A stretch of 64,000 bases of DNA from Nitrospirota bacterium. Its GTDB lineage: Bacteria; Nitrospirota; UBA9217. The stretch is from assembly GCA_963740085.1 (NCBI GenBank), contig CAVUCU010000001.1:288001-352000 (forward strand), written 5' to 3'. A program made the position numbers and the translations under genes. Positions 3,489 through 62,854 of the stretch are shown here, one piece after another (the first letter of the stretch is position 1; every line of letters starts with the position of its first letter). The notes below the pieces were generated by a model. That model did no database searches and was not told the DNA's origin. It was given only the letters and a program-made list of their open reading frames with translations.

Positions 3489-4730
3489 GTGAAACAGCAT
3501 TCCGCAGGTACGTTTCGCCATGTATTCAGCCTGCCCGTCATCGTCGCCGCCCTTGGCTACTTCGTCGACATCTACGACCTGGTGCTCTTCAGCATCGTCC
3601 GTGTGCCGAGCCTGAAATCGCTCGGACTTTCCGGTCGTGACCTGATCGACAACGGCGTATTTCTTCTCAACATGCAGATGGCGGGCATGCTCATCGGGGG
3701 CATTCTCTGGGGCGTTCTGGGCGACCGCAAAGGCCGGCTCAAGATCATGTTCGGCTCGATCTTTCTGTATTCCATCGCGAACATCGCGAACGGGATGGTC
3801 GCGTCCCTTCCTGCCTACGCGGCCCTGCGCTTCATCGCCGGCATCGGGCTTGCGGGCGAGCTTGGGGCGGGGATCACCCTCGTGTCCGAGGTCCTGCACA
3901 CCAGCATCCGGGGGTACGGCACCATGCTCGTGGCCGCCGTGGGCGTATCGGGTGCGATCCTCGCGAACCTCATTGCCAATACCTATGACTGGCGGAACGC
4001 CTTCATCATCGGAGGTGTTCTCGGCCTCGTGCTGCTCATCACCCGGATCAGCGTGGCAGAGTCAGGCATGTTCCGGGCCATGAACAGAAAGGCCGGGGTC
4101 AGCAGAGGGAACCTGCTCGCCCTCTTCTCGGAACGGAAGCGTTTCCTCCGCTATCTCAACTCCATCCTGATCGGCGTCCCGATCTGGTTCGTCGTCGCGA
4201 TCCTGATCACCTTCTCGCCGGAGTTTGCCAGGGCCTTCGGAACGACCGGACCGGTCTCCGCCGGGAATGCGGTCATGTTCTGCTACCTGGGGCTGGTCTT
4301 CGGCGATCTTTCGAGCGGCCTGCTGAGCCAGGCCTTGAAGAGCAGGAAAAAGGTGGTATTCCTGTTCATGCTCCTGACCCTTGCCGCCATCGGCCTCTAT
4401 TTCCTGCAGGGAAGCAGGAGCCCGGAATTCTTTTACGGTGTGTGCCTCACGCTCGGATTTGCCAGCGGCTACTGGGCCATCTTCGTGACCATTGCCGCCG
4501 AGCAGTTCGGCACGAACCTGCGCGCTACGGTTGCCACGACCGTTCCCAATTTCGTGCGCGGGATGGTGGTCCCCATCACCCTTCTCTTCCAGTTGTTCCG
4601 CCGATACCTCGGCCTTGAGGGCGGCGCGCTTGCCGTCGGGGCCATCTGCTCGATTACGGCGTTCATCGCCCTCGCCTCACTGGAAGAGACGTTTCATAAG
4701 GATCTGGACTATTATGAGGAGTTCCCCTAA
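3489..4730 (+). CDS. MFS transporter
   Basis: About 12 hydrophobic segments, GYFVDIYD and GVLGDRKGR (motif A). Confidence 0.9.
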   Translation: MKQHSAGTFRHVFSLPVIVAALGYFVDIYDLVLFSIVRVPSLKSLGLSGRDLIDNGVFLLNMQMAGMLIGGILWGVLGDRKGRLKIMFGSIFLYSIANIANGMVASLPAYAALRFIAGIGLAGELGAGITLVSEVLHTSIRGYGTMLVAAVGVSGAILANLIANTYDWRNAFIIGGVLGLVLLITRISVAESGMFRAMNRKAGVSRGNLLALFSERKRFLRYLNSILIGVPIWFVVAILITFSPEFARAFGTTGPVSAGNAVMFCYLGLVFGDLSSGLLSQALKSRKKVVFLFMLLTLAAIGLYFLQGSRSPEFFYGVCLTLGFASGYWAIFVTIAAEQFGTNLRATVATTVPNFVRGMVVPITLLFQLFRRYLGLEGGALAVGAICSITAFIALASLEETFHKDLDYYEEFP

Positions 4731-4757: not shown

Positions 4758-4873
4758 TCTCGCAGAGGCGCAGAGTACGCAGAGACAGCAATACTTAATA
4801 AAGCAACGCCTTGGTCTTTGTCTTAATGCAAAAAGATTAAGCCTTTCTCTGCGAGCTCTGCGTCTCTGCGAGA
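4758..4873. repeat. class A inverted tandem repeat element (empty), arms nearly identical to those flanking GxxExxY-1
   Basis: TCTCGCAGAG-GCGCAGAG-TACGCAGAG ... CTCTGCG-AGCTCTGCG-TCTCTGCGAGA. Confidence 0.9.
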
Positions 4874-4894: not shown

Positions 4895-4923
4895 TTGACT
4901 CTTTCTCCTATTCCCTTTATAAT
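4895..4923 (+). promoter_or_regulatory. sigma70-type promoter of gpsA
   Basis: TTGACT-N17-TATAAT ending 9 nt before the ATG, with no SD. Confidence 0.65.
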
Positions 4924-4932
4924 TCACGCACT

Positions 4933-5934
4933 ATGACTGAAAAGATCGGCGTCATCGGCGCAGGGGCATGGGGCACGGCACTTGCCATGCTGCTTGCCCA
5001 CAACGGGCATGACGTGACCCTTTGGATGTATGAAAAGGACCTCGCCGAGGAGACGGCGCGGACGAGAGAGAATCGCGTTTATCTCCCGGGGTTCATCCTG
5101 CCCGGCTCCATCCTGGTGACCTCATCTCTTGAAACCGCGGTCAGGAACAAACCGATCGTTCTTTCCGTCGTTCCCTCTCACACGGTCCGTGCAGTGGCAA
5201 ACCAGCTTGCTCCTTTTCTATCGAAGGACGCCATCATCATCAGCGCATCCAAGGGCATCGAGCTCGAGACGCTCATGCCGCTCTCCGAAGTGTTCAAGGA
5301 CATTCTCCCCAAACAGTTTCACGACCGGCTCTGCTTCCTTTCCGGGCCCAGCTTTGCCAAAGAGGTCGCCCGGCAGATGCCCACCGCTGTTGCCCTCGCT
5401 TCGTACGACCCGGCTGCGGGCAAAAAGGCGCAGGAGGCCTTCAGCAACCCCTACTTCCGCGTCTATACTAATCCCGATGTCCTCGGTGTGGAACTCGCGG
5501 GAGCGCTCAAAAATGTAGTAGCCATTGCGGCGGGAGTGATCGAAGGCATGGGCTTCGGATATAACACCATGGCCGCCCTGCTCACCCGCGGGCTCGCGGA
5601 GATGGCGCGGCTCGGCGTGGCCATGGGAGGAGAACTTCAAACCTTCTCCGGCCTTGCGGGCATGGGAGATCTCGTCCTTACCTGTACAGGAGGCTTGTCG
5701 AGGAACCGCGCCCTCGGGTCCCGGCTCGGCAAAGGTGAGAAGCTGGCTGACATCCTGACAGGAACAAAGACCGTTGCCGAAGGCGTCAAGACCGCCAGGG
5801 CCGCTCGCGACCTTGCGCAAAAATACGATATCGCGATGCCGATCGTCGAGGAGGTCTATCAACTCCTGTACGAAGGCAAAGACCCGAAGCTCGCCGTGAA
5901 GGACCTGATGAGCCGTGAGCTCCGGGGAGAATGA
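4933..5934 (+). CDS. gpsA: NAD(P)H-dependent glycerol-3-phosphate dehydrogenase
   Basis: GAGAWGTALA, SGPSFAKEV, GALKNV, GMGDLVLTC, SRN, AEGV. Confidence 0.95.
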   Translation: MTEKIGVIGAGAWGTALAMLLAHNGHDVTLWMYEKDLAEETARTRENRVYLPGFILPGSILVTSSLETAVRNKPIVLSVVPSHTVRAVANQLAPFLSKDAIIISASKGIELETLMPLSEVFKDILPKQFHDRLCFLSGPSFAKEVARQMPTAVALASYDPAAGKKAQEAFSNPYFRVYTNPDVLGVELAGALKNVVAIAAGVIEGMGFGYNTMAALLTRGLAEMARLGVAMGGELQTFSGLAGMGDLVLTCTGGLSRNRALGSRLGKGEKLADILTGTKTVAEGVKTARAARDLAQKYDIAMPIVEEVYQLLYEGKDPKLAVKDLMSRELRGE

Positions 5935-5974
5935 TTTATTTCTATGAAGTGACTGCCCGGTCAAAACCGGTCGT

Positions 5975-6062
5975 CCGCAGAGAACGCAAGGATCTCAGAG
6001 AAAAAACCGGATCTTGAACTTTTACCGTATAGGCTTTTGTGTTCCTTTCGCTCTTTGCGGTT
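5975..6062. repeat. class A inverted tandem repeat element (empty, degenerate)
   Basis: CCGCAGAG-AACGCAAGG-ATCTCAGAG ... TTTGTG-TTCCTTTCG-CTCTTTGCGG. Confidence 0.7.
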
Positions 6063-6116
6063 AATGCGTCTTTCCCGAGATCATCCTGAGTTGTAACGCG
6101 GTGAACACGATAAGCT

Positions 6117-6890
6117 ATGAAGACATCAGACATCTCTAAACTTCTCCAGGGAGTCCGATCGGGCAAGATCGATGTCGAGACCGCGCTCAACCGGCTCAGG
6201 CACCTGCCTTTTGAGGACGTGTCATACGCCCACATCGACCATCATCGTCATCTGCGCCACGGCATGCCCGAGGTCATCTACTGTGAAGGAAAGACCCTGG
6301 AGCAGGTTGTCGGAATCACCGGTCGGATGCTCAAAGCCGGGAGCGACATCCTCGCCACCCGCGCGTCTGAAACAGTTTATAAGGCAGTCAAGAAACTCGA
6401 TCGCCGCGCACTCTACCATAAAGCCTCACGCACAATCGTGATACAGGATAAGAAGAAGACCCTGACCGCGGGTATCGTGCTCGTACTGACCGCGGGGACC
6501 TCGGATATCCCTGTTGCCGAGGAAGCCGCGGTGACGGCGGGCATGCTCGGCAGCACCGTTCAGACCGTGTACGACGTGGGAGTGGCGGGGATCCACCGAA
6601 TCCTGAGCAAGCGGGAGATGCTCGACTCCGCCAGGGTGATCGTTGTCGTAGCAGGCATGGACGGCGCGCTCCCGTCTGTCGTGGGCGGGCTCGTGGACAA
6701 ACCTGTGATCGCTGTGCCTACGAGCGTCGGCTACGGTGCGGGTTTTCAGGGGCTTGCCCCGCTCCTCACCATGCTCAACTCCTGTGCCTCGGGCGTCGCG
6801 GTCATGAACATCGACAACGGCTTCGGCGCCGGCGTGCTGGCGCACAGGATAAACCTGTTGGGAGAAAAATCCTGCTGTAGTGCGTCATAA
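6117..6890 (+). CDS. larB: nickel-pincer cofactor biosynthesis protein LarB
   Basis: HRHLRHGMPEVIYCEGK, AGTSDIPVAEEA, DVGVAGIHR, PTSVGYG, NIDNGFGA. Confidence 0.93.
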   Translation: MKTSDISKLLQGVRSGKIDVETALNRLRHLPFEDVSYAHIDHHRHLRHGMPEVIYCEGKTLEQVVGITGRMLKAGSDILATRASETVYKAVKKLDRRALYHKASRTIVIQDKKKTLTAGIVLVLTAGTSDIPVAEEAAVTAGMLGSTVQTVYDVGVAGIHRILSKREMLDSARVIVVVAGMDGALPSVVGGLVDKPVIAVPTSVGYGAGFQGLAPLLTMLNSCASGVAVMNIDNGFGAGVLAHRINLLGEKSCCSAS

Positions 6891-7015: not shown

Positions 7016-8269
7016 ATGTCCCACAGGAAACAACATCGAAAAAGTTCGCATCACGCCGTTTTACCCGCGGGTTTGTCCCGCTTTATACCGGGCAATCAGG
7101 TCAGCCTGTTGCAGAACGGCGAGGCCTATTTCCCCGCGCTCGAAGCGGCGTTCGACCGTGCACGTCATGAAATATATCTTGAAACATATATTTACGAAAA
7201 TGACGCCACCGGACAGCGGATCGCGGACGCGCTGAAGCGGGCTGCCTTGCGCGGCGTACACGTCCATGTGCTGATCGACGGCTACGGTTCCAAGGACCTG
7301 CCGCGAAGCATGCTGGACCGTCTGCGGGCGGACGGGGTGAAGGCGCTCATCTACCGGCCCAAGATATCCCCCTGGACGTTTCGACGCAAGCGCCTGCGAA
7401 GGATGCACCGGAAGATCGCGGTCGTGGACCGGGAGATCGCCTTTGTCGGAGGGATCAATATTATTAATGACCGCGAAGCGACGGGCGACATGCCCCCTCG
7501 CTACGACTACGCGGTCGCCGTGGAAGGGCCTCTGGTGGACGTGATCCGTCTTCCCGTCCAGCGTCTGTGGTCAATGGTGGCGTGGAGCTATTTTCGCAAA
7601 GGGGCTGTCCGGGGCGCGCCACTGCCTGTTTCAGCCTCCGCCGGGGGGCGAATGAGCGCGGCATTCCTGGTGCGGGACAATTTTCACCATCGCCGGGACA
7701 TTGAAGCGGCGTATATGCGCGCGATCGAACAGGCAAAATCCGAGATCATTCTTGCCCATGCCTACTTTTTGCCGGGGCTTGATTTTCGTCATGCGCTTAT
7801 CAATGCGGCCGGGCGCGGCGTCCGGGTGGTTTTGCTGCTGCAGGGAAAGGTGGAATATTATCTCCAGTATTATGCATCGCGGGCCCTCTATGGCCATTTT
7901 CTCGATGCGGGAGTTGAGATTTACGAATACCGCAAGAGCTTCCTGCACGCCAAAGTCGCGGTGATCGACGGGCATTGGGCGACGGTGGGGTCTTCGAATC
8001 TCGATCCGTACAGCCTGCTGCTTTCACGCGAAGCGAATGTTGTCGTCGACGACGAAGAATTTGGCGCGACCCTGACGCAAAGCCTGAAACAGACCATGGA
8101 GATCGACGGCCGGCGGATCCTCAGGGACAGCTGGAAACGGCAGCCCTTTTTTTCCAGGTTCATGAGCTGGCTCAGTTATGGTCTGGTGCGCTTAATGATG
8201 GGAGTGACCGGGTATGCCCGTGAAGACATCCGGACCGGGAACGATCGAACGACTGCGCATGAGGACTGA
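7016..8269 (+). CDS. clsB: cardiolipin synthase, ClsB type
   Basis: Two HKD motifs (HRKIAVVD, HAKVAVID), no N-terminal TM, IDGYGS. Confidence 0.88.
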   Translation: MSHRKQHRKSSHHAVLPAGLSRFIPGNQVSLLQNGEAYFPALEAAFDRARHEIYLETYIYENDATGQRIADALKRAALRGVHVHVLIDGYGSKDLPRSMLDRLRADGVKALIYRPKISPWTFRRKRLRRMHRKIAVVDREIAFVGGINIINDREATGDMPPRYDYAVAVEGPLVDVIRLPVQRLWSMVAWSYFRKGAVRGAPLPVSASAGGRMSAAFLVRDNFHHRRDIEAAYMRAIEQAKSEIILAHAYFLPGLDFRHALINAAGRGVRVVLLLQGKVEYYLQYYASRALYGHFLDAGVEIYEYRKSFLHAKVAVIDGHWATVGSSNLDPYSLLLSREANVVVDDEEFGATLTQSLKQTMEIDGRRILRDSWKRQPFFSRFMSWLSYGLVRLMMGVTGYAREDIRTGNDRTTAHED

Positions 8270-8396: not shown

Positions 8397-9254
8397 ATGA
8401 AGAAGCATCAAAACATACGTATGCTCCTCAGTCGGTTCATTGCTTTCCTGACCAGTGTACTGAGTGACTTCAGACGCAATCAGGGTCTCTTGCTGGCCGG
8501 CGCTCTCGCCTATTATACCCTGCTGTCAATTGTACCCCTGTCGATCCTCGCCCTGATTGTGCTGTCACATTTTATCGGGAAGGCCGAGTTATTTTACACC
8601 TTGTCGACCTATATAGAAATGATGATACCGGGCTATTCGGCTACCTTGAGTGATCAAGTTCGGGTATTTCTGGAACACAGCAGTACGGTCGGGGGTTTTG
8701 TATTTTTGATTATGCTTTTTTTCAGTTCCATAGCCTTTACCGTGCTCGAAAGCGCCATGTCGGTGATCTTTTTTCATCGTTTTCGAACGAAACAGCGTCG
8801 CCTGCTCCTCTCCGCCATTATTCCTTATGTGTATATCTTCTTGATCGGCCTTGGTATCCTGCTGGTGTCGTTTATTGCGGGCGCCATAGAGACCTATAGC
8901 GGCAGGCAGTTAATCATATTCGGATGGGGTTTCAGCCTTCAGGGCCCTTCCTTCGTTGCGCTGTATTTAATCGGGATACTCGGCGAGGTACTGCTGCTGA
9001 CGTCCTTCTATCTGGTCATGCCCGTGGCGCGTATCACATTCCGGTACGCTCTGATGGGAGGGACGATCGCGACGGTCTTATGGGAGATCACCCGCCGCGT
9101 ATTGGTCTGGTATTACTCAGTCCTCTCAACGGTAAATGTAATCTACGGTTCTTTTGCCACGTCAGTGGTGGCACTGCTCAGTTTAGAGGCGATTGCTGTT
9201 ATCGTCTTGCTGGGGGCCCAGTGCATTGCGGAACTAGAGCGCAGAAAGGCTTAG
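8397..9254 (+). CDS. YihY/BrkB family membrane protein
   Basis: LAGALAYYTLLSIVP, YGSFA, LLGAQ motifs, multi-TM. Typical cls neighbour. Confidence 0.85.
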   Translation: MKKHQNIRMLLSRFIAFLTSVLSDFRRNQGLLLAGALAYYTLLSIVPLSILALIVLSHFIGKAELFYTLSTYIEMMIPGYSATLSDQVRVFLEHSSTVGGFVFLIMLFFSSIAFTVLESAMSVIFFHRFRTKQRRLLLSAIIPYVYIFLIGLGILLVSFIAGAIETYSGRQLIIFGWGFSLQGPSFVALYLIGILGEVLLLTSFYLVMPVARITFRYALMGGTIATVLWEITRRVLVWYYSVLSTVNVIYGSFATSVVALLSLEAIAVIVLLGAQCIAELERRKA

Positions 9255-11460: not shown

Positions 11461-12666
11461 ATGACCATCGCTTACTTCGATTGTTTTTCCGGCATATCCG
11501 GCGACATGACCCTCGGCGCGCTTGTGGACGCGGGCGTCTCGATCGACGCCTTGCGCGCGGAACTGGCGAGACTCGATCTTCCCGGCTACGAGATCACGTC
11601 TGACAAGGTTAAACGTTCCGGAATTGCCGCCACCAGGGTCCATGTCATCATTGATCAGAAAGACCAGACATCGCGCCATCTCTCGGAGATAGAAAAGATC
11701 ATAGAAGGTTCTTCACTGCCTTTAGCGGTAAGAAAGAACAGCCTGCGGATATTCAAACGGCTGGCGGACGCGGAAGCAAAGGTGCACGGCACGACGCCCG
11801 ACAAGATCCACTTCCATGAGGTCGGCGCGGTCGATTCGATTGTGGATATCGTCGGTTCGGTCATCGGTCTTGAGCTTCTGGGCGTCTCGAAGATCATGGC
11901 ATCCGCGATCAATGCCGGCTCAGGCATGGTCCAGACTTCTCACGGAATGCTTCCCATTCCCGCCCCGGCGACGGCTGAGCTGCTTGCCAATATCCCCCTG
12001 TATCAATCAGCAACCCTGTTTGAGCTCACCACGCCCACGGGTGCGGCGATCATCAGCACGCTCGGGTCCTCCTTCGGCCTCATGCCTCCGATGAAGGTCG
12101 AGCGGACCGCCTACGGCGCGGGTGATAAAGATTTTCCGGGACAGCCGAATGTCCTGCGGCTCATGATCGGGGAGCCGGTTGCCGGGTACGATGAGGATAC
12201 GTCCATCGTCATCGAGACGAATATTGATGACATGAACCCGCAGATGTATGATTATGTCGTCGAGAAGCTCATGCAGCAGGGCGCGCAGGATGTGTATCTC
12301 ACTCCGATCATCATGAAAAAAGGCAGGCCCGCGATCCTGTTGTCGGTATTAACCGATCGGTCGAAGACTGATATCCTGCTCAACACCCTGTTCCGGGAAA
12401 CGACCAGCATCGGCGTCCGGATCAAGGAAGCGGGGAGGAAGAAACTCTCCCGCGAGATGCGTGAAGTCGAAACCCCGTATGGCAAGATCGGGATAAAGAT
12501 CAGCAAGAACGGCAATGAGATACTCACGGTGACCCCTGAGTATGAGGATTGCAGAAGGATCGCGGAGGAAAGGCGAATACCTTTGAAACAAGTGATAGAA
12601 GAAGCGAAAGCCATCTTTTCTCGCAGAGGCGCAGAGGGCGCAGAGAAAAGCGATGACAGAAAATAA
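11461..12666 (+). CDS. larC: nickel insertion protein LarC
   Basis: YFDCFSGISGDM, IHFHEVGAVDSIVD, ELTTPTG, ETNIDDM, MKKGRP, PEYEDC. Confidence 0.95.
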   Translation: MTIAYFDCFSGISGDMTLGALVDAGVSIDALRAELARLDLPGYEITSDKVKRSGIAATRVHVIIDQKDQTSRHLSEIEKIIEGSSLPLAVRKNSLRIFKRLADAEAKVHGTTPDKIHFHEVGAVDSIVDIVGSVIGLELLGVSKIMASAINAGSGMVQTSHGMLPIPAPATAELLANIPLYQSATLFELTTPTGAAIISTLGSSFGLMPPMKVERTAYGAGDKDFPGQPNVLRLMIGEPVAGYDEDTSIVIETNIDDMNPQMYDYVVEKLMQQGAQDVYLTPIIMKKGRPAILLSVLTDRSKTDILLNTLFRETTSIGVRIKEAGRKKLSREMREVETPYGKIGIKISKNGNEILTVTPEYEDCRRIAEERRIPLKQVIEEAKAIFSRRGAEGAEKSDDRK

Positions 12667-13087
12667 TATAACGGGTAATATCATAGACTGCTGCCTTAAA
12701 ATTCATAAGACGTTAGGCCCTGGACTTTTGGAATCGGTCTATGAGGAAGCACTGGCATACGAATTAAAAAGAAGAGGTCTTCCTTGCGACAGGCAGGTTG
12801 AAGTTCCAGTTGTTTATGACGGGATCAAGATGAATATTGGCTTTCGCGCCGATATTATCGTGGATGGCGAGGTCATTGTAGAACTGAAATCCATTGAATC
12901 GGTTCACCCTGTTCACAAGAAGCAGCTTCTGACTTATTTGAAGTTATCACAAAAGAGAGTCGGACTGTTAATCAACTTTAACGAAGATTTCATCAAGAAC
13001 GGAATTGCTCGGATTGCGAATGGCATTTAACCGCTGACCTTTTGAATTTTATTTGCATCACTCTGCGCACTCTGCGCCTCTGCGAGA
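12619..13087. mobile_element. GxxExxY-1 cassette: gene bracketed by 27-bp inverted tandem-repeat arms
   Basis: Left arm 12619-12645 TCTCGCAGAGGCGCAGAGGGCGCAGAG and right arm 13061-13087 CTCTGCGCACTCTGCGCCTCTGCGAGA are 26/27 complementary. Mobility is inferred. Confidence 0.6.
12653..13030 (+). CDS. GxxExxY protein (PD-(D/E)XK-like)
   Basis: LGPGLLESVY, RADIIV, VELK, QLLTYLK, GLLINF. AT-rich relative to neighbours. Confidence 0.93.
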   Translation: MTENNITGNIIDCCLKIHKTLGPGLLESVYEEALAYELKRRGLPCDRQVEVPVVYDGIKMNIGFRADIIVDGEVIVELKSIESVHPVHKKQLLTYLKLSQKRVGLLINFNEDFIKNGIARIANGI

Positions 13088-13097
13088 TAAAAAGAGA

Positions 13098-20675: not shown

Positions 20676-20754
20676 ACCGCAGAGCCGCGGAGGCCGCAGA
20701 GGTAACCAATCAAATTATTAAGGTTTTATTCTCCGCGTCCCAGCGTCTCTGCGG
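20676..20754. repeat. class A inverted tandem repeat element (empty)
   Basis: ACCGCAGAG-CCGCGGAG-GCCGCAGAG ... CTCCGCG-TCCCAGCG-TCTCTGCGG. Confidence 0.8.
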
Positions 20755-20795
20755 CAGATAATTATTTTTACGATTGCATCAATATTGAGTTTGCA

Positions 20796-21384: not shown

Positions 21385-21505
21385 TATTATATTTTCAAGA
21401 TTTACCACAGAGCACACAGAGAAGGAGTTGAATATATCCTCAGTGCCCTCTGCCTGCGCCCAGCGTTTACGAGTGGAACCGCGAGTGCGGGGTGTGGTTT
21501 CATTT
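21385..21505. repeat. class A element with a 40-nt insertion in its right arm; near-copy of 32541-32680
   Basis: TATTATATTTTCAAGATTTACCACAGAG-CACACAGAG ... CTCAGTGCCCTCTG[21453-21492]TGTGGTTT. Confidence 0.8.
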
Positions 21506-34950: not shown

Positions 34951-34976
34951 GCAAGGGTCAGTTACCTTCAAATTGA

Positions 34977-35443
34977 ACCGCGAAGACGCGAGGAACGCGA
35001 AGAAGGCGATTCATGCAATGGATATCGAAGAGATTGCTAGTAAAATTGCAAACAATGCCATTAAAGTGCATTCGGTCCTTGGCCCGGGTTTATTAGAATC
35101 GGCTTATCAGAAGTGTTTGGCATATGAATTAGGGAAAGATGGATGCAAGGTCGAATGCGAGGTTATGTTACCGGTCGTTTATGATGCAATTAATATTGAT
35201 GCAGGTTATCGAATAGATATGATCGTTGGAGGTTCAGTCCTCGTTGAGAATAAAACGGTCGAAGGTTTACTTCCGATTCATGAAGCACAATTATTGACTT
35301 ATCTTAAATTGAAAAACTGCAAAATAGGGTTTTTACTCAATTGGAATGTTACTCGTATGAAATATGGTATCAAAAGATGGTCAATAACTTATGAGTATTC
35401 AATGCAGTGTGTATGACCTTCGCGCTCTTCGCGCCTTCGCGGT
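34977..35443. mobile_element. GxxExxY-2 cassette bracketed by 26-bp inverted tandem-repeat arms
   Basis: Left 34977-35002 ACCGCGAAGACGCGAGGAACGCGAAG and right 35418-35443 CTTCGCGCTCTTCGCGCCTTCGCGGT (23/26 complementary). Mobility is inferred. Confidence 0.6.
35018..35416 (+). CDS. GxxExxY protein (PD-(D/E)XK-like), probable 1-nt deletion in the last codons
   Basis: LGPGLLESAY, YRIDMIV, VENK, QLLTYLK, GFLLNWN. AT-rich. Confidence 0.92.
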   Translation: MDIEEIASKIANNAIKVHSVLGPGLLESAYQKCLAYELGKDGCKVECEVMLPVVYDAINIDAGYRIDMIVGGSVLVENKTVEGLLPIHEAQLLTYLKLKNCKIGFLLNWNVTRMKYGIKRWSITYEYSMQCV

Positions 35444-35486
35444 ATAATGTTTTTACTGTTACGATCTCGACGTTTCAAGAGGACTT

Positions 35487-39935: not shown

Positions 39936-40132
39936 ACCGCGAAGACGCAAAGAGCGCGAAGGTTTAAGTACATATCGATGAACGCGCAACAAGTCGAATG
40001 TAACCGCAGAGACGCTGAGGCGCAGAGAAAATCCTTCCGTGTCTCAACGCCTCCGCAGTAGATCAGGTTTTTTACGAGATCACCAGATTAGAGTCTGATG
40101 TTTATTCTTCGCGTCCTTCGCGACTTAGCGGT
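39936..40132. repeat. two nested class A elements
   Basis: Outer arms 39936-39961 and 40107-40132 (CGCGAAG type). Inner arms 40003-40027 and 40035-40059 (CGCAGAG type). Confidence 0.8.
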
Positions 40133-48993: not shown

Positions 48994-49048
48994 AATATCT
49001 AACCAGAATAAGCCGGAATAATAAAAGATCATAACTGAAATATCGTCT

Positions 49049-49142
49049 CTCGCAAAGACGCAAAGGACGGCAAGAATATCTTCAAGTATTGGTCTAAAAT
49101 AAAATGATTCGCCTTTCTTTGCGCACTTTGCGCCTTTGCGAG
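49049..49142. repeat. class A element, CGCAAAG variant (empty)
   Basis: CTCGCAAAG-ACGCAAAG-GACGGCAAG ... CTTTGCG-CACTTTGCG-CCTTTGCGAG. Confidence 0.85.
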
Positions 49143-49187
49143 GAAACAAAACAATATTGATGATTTTTAATCCGTTCTGGTGAGTAC

Positions 49188-53218: not shown

Positions 53219-53286
53219 ACCACTGAGACGCAGAGACACAGAGTCTATCATTCCTACAGCGGAAAGAAACCTCCGTGTCTCTGTGG
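53219..53286. repeat. class A element (empty)
   Basis: ACCACTGAG-ACGCAGAG-ACACAGAG ... CTCCGTG-TCTCTGTGG. Confidence 0.8.
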
Positions 53287-55604: not shown

Positions 55605-55635
55605 AGATTAATCCTAAAAACAGCAGTTGCTCTTG

Positions 55636-55757
55636 GCTGCAAAGAACACAAAGAAACGCAAAAAAGAAAAAACTTAAACGCGTTCACCTTCTTGGCAATA
55701 CAGCTTTCCTTGCAAAAGGTCTTATTTATCTCTGTGATCTCTGCGTTCTTTGAGGTT
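55636..55757. repeat. class A element (empty)
   Basis: GCTGCAAAG-AACACAAAG-AAACGCAAAA ... CTCTGTG-ATCTCTGCG-TTCTTTGAGG. Confidence 0.7.
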
Positions 55758-55773
55758 AACTGATCTTTTAAGG

Positions 55774-62781: not shown

Positions 62782-62854
62782 ACCACAAAGGCACCAAGAC
62801 ACAAAGAACAATCTTTTCACAACCGGCGTTCTTCGTGACTTAGTGCCTTCGCGG
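62782..62854. repeat. class A element (empty)
   Basis: ACCACAAAG-GCACCAAG-ACACAAAG ... CTTCGTG-ACTTAGTG-CCTTCGCGG. Confidence 0.8.

Follow-up and report, generated by a model that had tools for sequence, protein, structure and literature searches.

Two described systems come closest to the element analyzed here. In REPIN-RAYT systems, the gene of a RAYT (REP-associated tyrosine transposase) is accompanied by repetitive extragenic palindromes (REPs) dispersed through the same genome. In the intervening sequences of 23S ribosomal RNA (rRNA), a small open reading frame (ORF) is enclosed by a long stem; the Coxiella example, as described in PMC4990558, measures 428-444 nt, is closed by a 28-bp stem of terminal inverted repeats within which RNase III cuts, and carries three tandem heptamers just 5' of an ORF of about 120 codons. 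Here we analyze a 64,000-nt stretch of a Nitrospirota bacterium genome (contig CAVUCU010000001.1, positions 288,001-352,000; hereafter the window), in which a gene of the GxxExxY family, listed with function unknown in the survey PMC3424549, lies between two inverted arms of short tandem repeats in the larC-nadE junction. We call such a gene with its arms a cassette, and this copy cassette 1. It represents a cassette that is widespread and evolves as one unit. We found no description of this gene-repeat association in the literature, with curators' TIGR04256/InterPro comments and subscription journals outside our reach.

Results

A GxxExxY gene between inverted tandem-repeat arms

A first-pass annotation of the window had placed a 125-aa GxxExxY gene at the larC-nadE junction inside 27-bp inverted arms, and both the stated positions and the complementarity of the arms are confirmed; the ORF itself occupies 12653-13030 on the plus strand. 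The sequence at 12619-12645, the left arm, is TCTCGCAGAGGCGCAGAGGGCGCAGAG; reverse-complemented, 13061-13087 departs from this at 1 base (26/27). A repeat search extends the arms to 30 nt (12616-12645 and 13061-13090, 93% complementary), with an inner distance, arm to arm, of 415 nt. Each arm comprises three CGCAGAG (or CTCTGCG) units spaced by 8 and 9 nt, again as first described. The DNA between the arms has a G+C content of 40%, and the window 54%. The window contains 10 matches to the pattern CGCAGAGNNCGCAGAG with at most 2 mismatches (0.62 expected), and none of 100 shuffles had as many; the cassette pattern is not due to chance.

The upstream neighbour encodes a LarC-type nickel insertion protein (PF01969) and the downstream neighbour an NAD synthase (PF02540 plus CN_hydrolase), whose first in-frame ATG (13100) lies about 10 nt beyond the end of the right arm. 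The larC frame crosses the left arm (12619-12666; tail ...FSRRGAEGAEKSDDRK) and ends at a stop codon, 12664-12666, 14 nt past the ATG of the cassette gene. Because this frame runs through the arm, the last larC codons and the stop are supplied by the cassette, and translation of the cassette gene could be coupled to that of larC.

The GxxExxY protein

The cassette 1 protein is a member of the GxxExxY family. It matches TIGR04256 with an E-value of 8.8e-45 and 151.8 bits (cut-off 35), covering profile positions 2-115 of 116, and PF13366 (PDDEXK_3) with 1.8e-42 and 144.9 bits (cut-off 22); it has no other Pfam or NCBIfam match. In alignment A1, which holds 18 homologues, G24, E27 and Y30 are invariant, as are the catalytic D67, E77 and K79, so that the membership in the PD-(D/E)XK superfamily stated in the first-pass annotation stands. 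A structure model (predicted local distance difference test score, pLDDT, 91.6) has a core nearest to Cas4 SSO0001 (E 1.3e-3, template modelling score, TM, 0.56), lambda-exonuclease-like enzymes and Hjc, with TM up to 0.58; because these fold matches are weak, they support the PD-(D/E)XK core fold and nothing narrower. With the family profile, 0 sequences of the Protein Data Bank matched at E<=1; a defence-system library yielded marginal Cas4 matches only (E 0.003-0.007), and a phage-family library a single weak Cas-associated match (E 3.9e-5).

The family is large: an exhaustive search for PF13366/TIGR04256 found 22,541 clusters at 50% identity at E<=1e-3 and 7,628 at E<=1e-10, and a word-indexed search found at least 8,000 candidates. 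The ratio of nonsynonymous to synonymous substitution rates (dN/dS), computable for 16 of 30 syntenic pairs, the others being saturated, is 0.05-0.21 (median 0.12); as judged from these substitution rates, the gene is functional and under purifying selection. Longer homologues mostly contain two tandem PF13366 domains in about 260-335 aa (P0122, P0125, P0139, P0165 and about 100 more), and in P0125, the sole tandem protein inspected by eye, the E-x-K position is lost in the second domain. These proteins look like natural fused dimers, a hint that the enzyme may act as a dimer. We rejected other long forms (P0232, P0214, P0206) as domain fusions, since they represent read-through of the neighbouring gene across an arm.

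Arms accompany the gene across phyla

A pattern derived from A1 gave 601 matches in 185,579 species genomes, of which 596 were confirmed. The best 80 loci were used; these are 52-65% identical to the query and thus represent its closest relatives, not the whole family. Many come from metagenome-assembled genomes, and syntenic groups among them are non-independent samples. The loci were picked by protein motifs alone, and the selection was therefore blind to the flanks. They span more than 10 phyla, among them Acidobacteriota, Cyanobacteriota, Planctomycetota, Verrucomicrobiota, Bacteroidota and Myxococcota, as well as Thermodesulfobacteriota, Nitrospirota, Chloroflexota, Ignavibacteriota and others. 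When all ORFs in the loci and the window were searched with the profile, 90 matched, 85 of them with enough flank for testing.

The flanks of each gene were compared by an ungapped inverted-repeat test, in which the 150 nt upstream were matched to the 150 nt downstream at a score of at least 13. The arms expected by the first-pass annotation around GxxExxY genes elsewhere are present: a strong inverted repeat spans 54 of 75 near-full-length GxxExxY genes and 9 of 628 control ORFs from the same loci (Mann-Whitney p = 9e-26). By eye, 20 of the 21 low-scoring genes nevertheless have an adjacent array; what kept them below the threshold were indels, an extended stop or a one-sided arm. When the strict unit pattern is applied, one or more arrays lie within 400 nt of 72 of 79 genes. 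The gap between arm and ORF is mostly 0-30 nt. In the 851,715 nt examined there are 259 unit arrays, 176 of them with at least 3 units, against 6.8 and 0.05 in block shuffles, and they are about 47 times as dense within 150 nt of GxxExxY gene ends (5.60 per kb) as elsewhere (0.12 per kb).

Five further homologues, 38-52% identical, lie on large plasmids. Those of Bacteroides (between radA and a gene for a FAD protein) and Bernardetia have clear arms on both sides, and that of Sphingomonas, between fabD and fabG, has a one-sided arm. The remaining two, in Treponema and Prevotella, are less clear and are taken up in the Discussion.

Several loci carry related arrangements. Among the 9 positive control ORFs are two PF05635/TIGR02436 four-helix-bundle genes (L027:3178-3567 and L011:2801-3043), whose arms are tandem repeats of the GAGTTTAGAATTAT type in L027 and of the GGAAGGTGAGAAG type in L011; a PF05635 scan of 150 of the 177 small control ORFs had as its sole match the gene already found. 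In the nuo operon of Lacibacter (L073:650-2100), AT-rich hairpins with tandem units of about 9 nt (ATTTGAGAA / TTTTCAAAT) stand at the nuoB and nuoC junctions, alike in architecture, different in sequence and with no gene inside. In L057:4409-5781, genes for an HNH endonuclease, an unknown protein and a helix-turn-helix protein lie between a purine and a pyrimidine arm 1,335 nt apart, and hairpins occupy almost every gene junction of that locus. A long ORF with repeated coiled segments (L077:8086-9822), by eye like a type I restriction specificity subunit, contains a purine arm (8238-8252) and a pyrimidine arm (8909-8931) within its frame.

The arms share a unit, covary and are conserved

Nearly all of the repeats are arrays of the unit C-R-C-N-R-A-G, the types being CGCAAAG (54), CGCAGAG (23), CGCGAAG (9), CGCTAAG (8), CACAAAG (6), CACGGAG (6) and others. 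Three units make up 172 of 257 arms and two units 81. Adjacent units follow at 8 nt in 358 of 438 pairs, at 9 nt in 72 and at 10 nt in 8, and we rejected a codon-like periodicity of 9 nt because the main period is 8 nt. The consensus arm begins with TC(A/T) at its outer end, followed by CGCARAG, 1-2 bases, CGCARAG, 1-2 bases and CGCARAG.

The two arms of an element match each other (mean score 21.1) better than arms of different elements do (9.6), with the own partner scoring higher in 53 of 54 cases. At one orthologous site in 5 cyanobacteria with flanks about 80% identical, all units are either CGCAGAG/CTCTGCG or CGCAAAG/CTTTGCG, and the type switches jointly in the two arms. Arm identity between syntenic genomes averages 80%, close to codon positions 1 and 2, whereas third positions are 53% identical; arm identity exceeds that of third positions in 16 of 18 pairs, both exceptions involving L038. 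The sequence of the arms is therefore constrained beyond the requirement for pairing. L038 also carries a 48-nt palindromic insertion between left-arm units 1 and 2 (L038:5984-6050; columns 128-175 of alignment A2), which is missing in 4 orthologous cyanobacterial cassettes.

The purine arm lies upstream of the gene in 36 of 54 cassettes and the pyrimidine arm in 18. In the reversed type the gene often stands between two complete hairpins, which are 71-91% alike, loops included, and arrays of hairpin-gene-hairpin occur in L036, L040 and L060. Topology tracks protein clades, with 9 changes on the tree.

A second cassette and gene-less hairpins in the window

A Pfam scan of the 67 window ORFs revealed a second PF13366 gene (Table 1). 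Its arms, 31 nt each and 84% complementary, are 415 nt apart, the same distance as in cassette 1, and its neighbours are an EamA-family gene and a DegT/ArnB-type aminotransferase gene. The two GxxExxY proteins of the window share 44% identity. The cassettes thus have one layout and unlike units, which argues that the architecture is kept while both arms change.

The window also contains hairpins of the same type without a gene. The first-pass annotation had noted that the element at 4758-4873 has almost the same left arm as cassette 1 around a short AT-rich filler; the two left arms are indeed identical at 25 of 27 positions, and the loop has 34% G+C. Among the gene-less elements folded as RNA, 5 of 6 are more stable than their shuffles (z -2.8 to -7.9), the exception being 55630-55765 (z -1.3). 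With the two cassettes included, elements occupy 11 of the 64 gene junctions of the window.

Table 1. Cassettes and gene-less repeat elements in the window
Feature	Position	Strand	Description	RNA fold z	Basis
Cassette 1, left arm	12616..12645	.	TC-T-CGCAGAG, G, CGCAGAG, GG, CGCAGAG
Cassette 1, gene	12653..13030	+	GxxExxY, 125 aa, PD-(D/E)XK fold
Cassette 1, right arm	13061..13090	.	Three CTCTGCG units, 93% complementary to left arm
Cassette 2, left arm	34972..35002	.	CGCGAAG / CGCGAGG / CGCGAAG
Cassette 2, gene	35018..35416	+	GxxExxY, 132 aa, 125.5 bits
Cassette 2, right arm	35418..35448	.	Three CTTCGCG units
Gene-less hairpin	4758..4873	.	Three CGCAGAG, 62-nt loop, three CTCTGCG	-7.9
Degenerate gene-less element	~5970..6080	.	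CGCAGAG, CGCAAGG ... CTTTGCG		By eye
Gene-less hairpin	20678..20762	.	CGCAGAG / CGCGGAG units, between convergent genes	-4.1
Weak element	~21403..21470	.	Two CACAGAG units, partner matches poorly		By eye
Two left arms, then right arm	39938..40130	.	Right arm of other unit type (CTTCGCG/CTTAGCG), poor pairing
Gene-less hairpin	49047..49147	.	CGCAAAG/CTTTGCG units, 51-nt loop	-4.4
Short gene-less hairpin	53221..53285	.	CACTGAG/CGCAGAG/CACAGAG units, 27-nt loop
Degenerate gene-less element	55636..55758	.	CACAAAG-type units	-1.3
Gene-less hairpin	62784..62853	.	CACAAAG/CACCAAG units, 24-nt loop	-5.1

Residence, remnants and spread

The G+C content of the gene is below that of its flanks in 76 of 79 cases, and the junctions occupied belong to unrelated housekeeping pairs (larC|nadE, fabD|fabG, radA|FAD protein). 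A well-supported clade that unites proteins of several phyla has the unusual CAC(G/A)GAG units in common; because these units track a cross-phylum clade, gene and arms travel together. No target-site duplication was found in 59 elements, where direct repeats at the ends are absent in 42, 1 nt long in 12, 2 nt in 3, 3 nt in 1 and 5 nt in 1, a length distribution equal to that of shuffled partners. On this test we rejected a classical transposon with target-site duplication. Among the syntenic locus pairs, in which every locus had been chosen for carrying the gene, no clean pair of filled and empty sites was found.

Gene remnants are present in 3 of 29 gene-less hairpins. An internally deleted element in L022 (4917-5167; hairpin 4921-5163) keeps the first 42 nt of the gene at 93% identity. 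It lies 800 nt from a full cassette (5949-6406), and beyond each arm the two agree over about 12 nt (CAGATTAAATAT ... G-AATAAATTCT), flanks that L011 has as well. Because these common flanks lie beyond the arms, the repeated unit may extend past them in the L022/L011 lineage. In L040:6000-7750, one full gene copy is followed by 4-5 tandem units, each a purine arm plus a 3' GxxExxY fragment (profile about 84-125), repeated about every 234 nt. In L054, a 3.6-kb gene for a TonB-dependent-receptor-like outer membrane protein lies between inverted copies (537-673 and 4345-4481) of the GxxExxY gene 3' end plus arm, which span at least 137 nt and are 93% complementary, the second being cut at the contig end. 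This arrangement could be a composite element or an effect of assembly.

Discussion

A proposed system of nuclease and cognate repeat

Based on the association of gene and arms and by analogy with REPIN-RAYT, we propose, with a probability of roughly 0.45, that the cassette is a nuclease-plus-cognate-repeat system that resembles REPIN-RAYT, uses another enzyme fold and acts at the DNA level. The GxxExxY protein, probably as a dimer, would recognize the units of the repeat arms and act, in DNA, on these arms when folded or paired, and this action would maintain them. From time to time the arms, alone or together with the gene, would be copied into further intergenic sites, where no target-site duplication would arise; some of the gene-less copies would stem from internal deletion. 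Most cassettes would be old, vertically inherited residents. We infer from sequence that the protein binds or cuts the arms, that DNA is the level of action and that the system is mobile.

The constraint on arm sequence, together with the nuclease as the sole constant companion of the arms, favours recognition of the units by the GxxExxY protein. Taken with the scattered gene-less hairpins and the absence of target-site duplications, this supports a DNA-level relation of the REPIN-RAYT kind. The REP/RAYT-like interpretation offered in the first pass is borne out in part: gene and arms are associated, hairpins with the same arms are dispersed without the gene, a few of these keep gene remnants, and target-site duplications are absent, as they are for REP elements. 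It fares less well with respect to recent copies and to a simple model of inverted arms.

Several observations weigh against this proposal. We saw no recent copies, and the two window genes share, as noted, only 44% identity. In cyanobacteria, Pyrinomonadaceae, Flavobacteriaceae and other groups, cassettes have stayed at one orthologous site in different genera. Searches of the GxxExxY family by tblastn gave 0 matches in 50,697 phage records and matches in just 8 of 72,556 plasmid records. The reversed arm order of 18 of 54 cassettes is not predicted by a simple terminal-inverted-repeat element, and the loops of the gene-less hairpins in the window are mutually unrelated, with only 7-8-nt matches, unlike copies of a miniature transposon. 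Reversed topology, unrelated loops and long vertical residence are unexplained by a simple transposon. More distant family members are also less clear, Treponema having a plain inverted repeat and Prevotella direct repeats of another unit. Finally, the two PF05635 genes in the same loci, unrelated to GxxExxY, are likewise bracketed, by other units; because they are bracketed too, the hairpin bracket may be a general vehicle and not a nuclease-specific substrate.

Alternative explanations

It is also possible, though we consider it unlikely, that the cassette works at the RNA level, as an mRNA counterpart of the 23S intervening sequence. On transcription of the host operon, RNase III would cut the 27-30-bp stem formed by the arms and free the cistron. 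The release would control translation of the cistron, whose ribosome-binding region sits in the arm, and keep damage to the flanking genes small. The nearly identical anatomy of the Coxiella intervening sequence, as PMC4990558 describes it, gives this explanation a precedent. When cassette 1 is folded as RNA (z = -4.2), its arms pair with each other both at minimum energy and in the centroid structure. The arms adjoin the ORF and overlie its ribosome-binding region, and either arm order, as well as the hairpin-gene-hairpin form, places double-stranded RNA on each side of the cistron. The bracketing of PF05635 genes, which belong to the family found in rRNA intervening sequences, points the same way. 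No convincing promoter or terminator for the cassette was found. Of the window's junctions, 52 are co-directional, and 10 of these carry an element; among the 6 convergent and the 6 divergent ones the numbers are 1 and 0. In 58 of 71 cases the gene upstream points the same way, a median of about 80 nt away; this 82%, however, is little above the usual level for neighbouring bacterial genes. An excess of sense-strand G:U pairs among arm mismatches, expected if pairing were maintained in RNA, was not found (40 G:U-type against 51 A:C-type, p = 0.29), and Rfam at gathering score gave 0 matches in the whole window, rRNA included. The unit sequence, moreover, is conserved across phyla to the level of codon positions 1 and 2, which neither pairing alone nor RNase III would require. 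The RNA-level alternative raised in the first pass has a true precedent in the intervening sequences, with no wobble signal in the arm mismatches to go with it. The two explanations are compatible, as a DNA element can be processed as RNA too.

A nuclease with its own repeats would differ from a gene that merely targets repeats. The hairpins could be an older, independent family into which a selfish gene, similar to a homing endonuclease, inserts, either in the loop or between hairpins. The two topologies, with the gene in a loop or between two complete hairpins, would suit such targeting, as would the numerical preponderance of gene-less hairpins over cassettes in the window (9 to 2), the 26 of 29 gene-less hairpins whose loops bear no relation to the gene, and the missing target-site duplication; insertion sequences aimed at REP elements are known as well (PMC8450116). 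We nevertheless regard targeting as improbable. The unit consensus accompanies the gene in more than 10 phyla, and because an unusual variant tracks a protein clade across phyla, hairpins supplied by the host are hard to reconcile with the data. The closeness of arms to the ORF in most cases and the other units around PF05635 genes likewise speak against it.

That the protein is a domesticated host nuclease or nucleic-acid-binding factor with the arms and hairpins as its operator or substrate sites, for example at transcript ends or in the regulation of neighbours, and without any mobility, would suit the long residence at fixed sites, the strong purifying selection on the gene, the coding-like conservation of the arms and the position of elements between co-directional housekeeping genes, but is very improbable given the low G+C of the gene relative to its flanks, the patchy cross-phylum distribution with multiple divergent paralogues per genome, the decaying or truncated copies and tandem fragment arrays (L049, L040), and the insertions at unrelated housekeeping junctions.

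Significance

The near-universal, sequence-conserved repeat bracket provides a concrete and testable substrate for the GxxExxY family. It accounts for a class of intergenic hairpins found at about 1/6 of the gene junctions in the window, and it ties these hairpins to the long-unexplained ORF-bearing rRNA intervening sequences. If the nuclease reads the 8-nt units, then CGCAAAG, CGCAGAG, CGCGAAG and CACGGAG with the corresponding paralogues would form a natural specificity series.

A wider and more tentative view, which we think somewhat unlikely to hold as a whole, is that GxxExxY is the enzyme of a second, independently evolved and pan-bacterial hairpin-repeat replicator, a PD-(D/E)XK counterpart of REPIN-RAYT that reads an 8-nt unit code, and that rRNA intervening sequences and PF05635 cassettes are sister members of one mini-cassette class. 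Such a class, if real, would consist of hairpin-bracketed cassettes that colonize transcribed intergenic DNA; a family of more than 20,000 sequence clusters would thereby gain a function, and the intervening sequences an origin.

Comparison with known systems

The arrays in L036, L040 and L060 are reminiscent of integron cassettes, in that small promoter-less ORFs are separated by imperfect inverted repeats. Unlike in integrons, the commonest form of the cassette has the gene inside the hairpin, and the arms are tandem CGCARAG units, apparently not attC core sites. An integron was rejected because no integrase family occurs among the 67 window ORFs scanned.

Miniature inverted-repeat elements have terminal inverted repeats and gene-less derivatives, some with remnants, as the cassette does (3 of 29). 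The cassette differs from them in its lack of target-site duplication, its unrelated loops and its frequently reversed arm order, and the scan of 67 window ORFs found no transposase family in the cassette or close to it.

The resemblance to ORF-bearing 23S intervening sequences is closer in anatomy. In the accounts of Coxiella, Leptospira and others that we draw on, these measure about 430-470 nt with a stem of about 28 bp, as does the cassette, and both have tandem 7-nt repeats in the arms and a single ORF of about 120 codons directly after the 5' arm. The intervening sequences, however, lie in helix 9, 25 or 45 of 23S rRNA, whereas cassettes lie between protein-coding genes; the ORF of the former belongs to PF05635 (four-helix bundle) and that of the latter to PF13366; and excision by RNase III is proven for the intervening sequence, to which the cassette is likened by sequence anatomy. 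We rejected an rRNA intervening sequence as such, since both window cassettes are between protein-coding genes and no rRNA or other Rfam family matches in the window.

The REPIN-RAYT system matches the cassette in that a small nuclease-type gene is flanked by inverted copies of a hairpin repeat dispersed through the genome and target-site duplications are absent. Abstracts on RAYTs also describe long, mostly vertical inheritance and purifying selection, as in the cassette. A RAYT, however, is an HUH/Y1 enzyme, whereas the cassette protein has a PD-(D/E)XK fold; none of the 67 window ORFs scanned matched an HUH family, and a true RAYT system was rejected because the enzyme class is not HUH or Y1. 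A REP is a single short imperfect palindrome, whereas a cassette arm consists of three 8-9-nt units and the arms can stand about 415 nt apart. REPIN-RAYT systems have one gene per repeat family, on which the size of the repeat population depends, whereas cassettes occur as several divergent paralogues per genome (2 in 64 kb), and the repeat consensus of the cassette, unlike that of REPIN-RAYT, is common to many phyla. Taken together, the cassette is closest to REPIN-RAYT in its proposed way of working and to an intervening sequence in its appearance.

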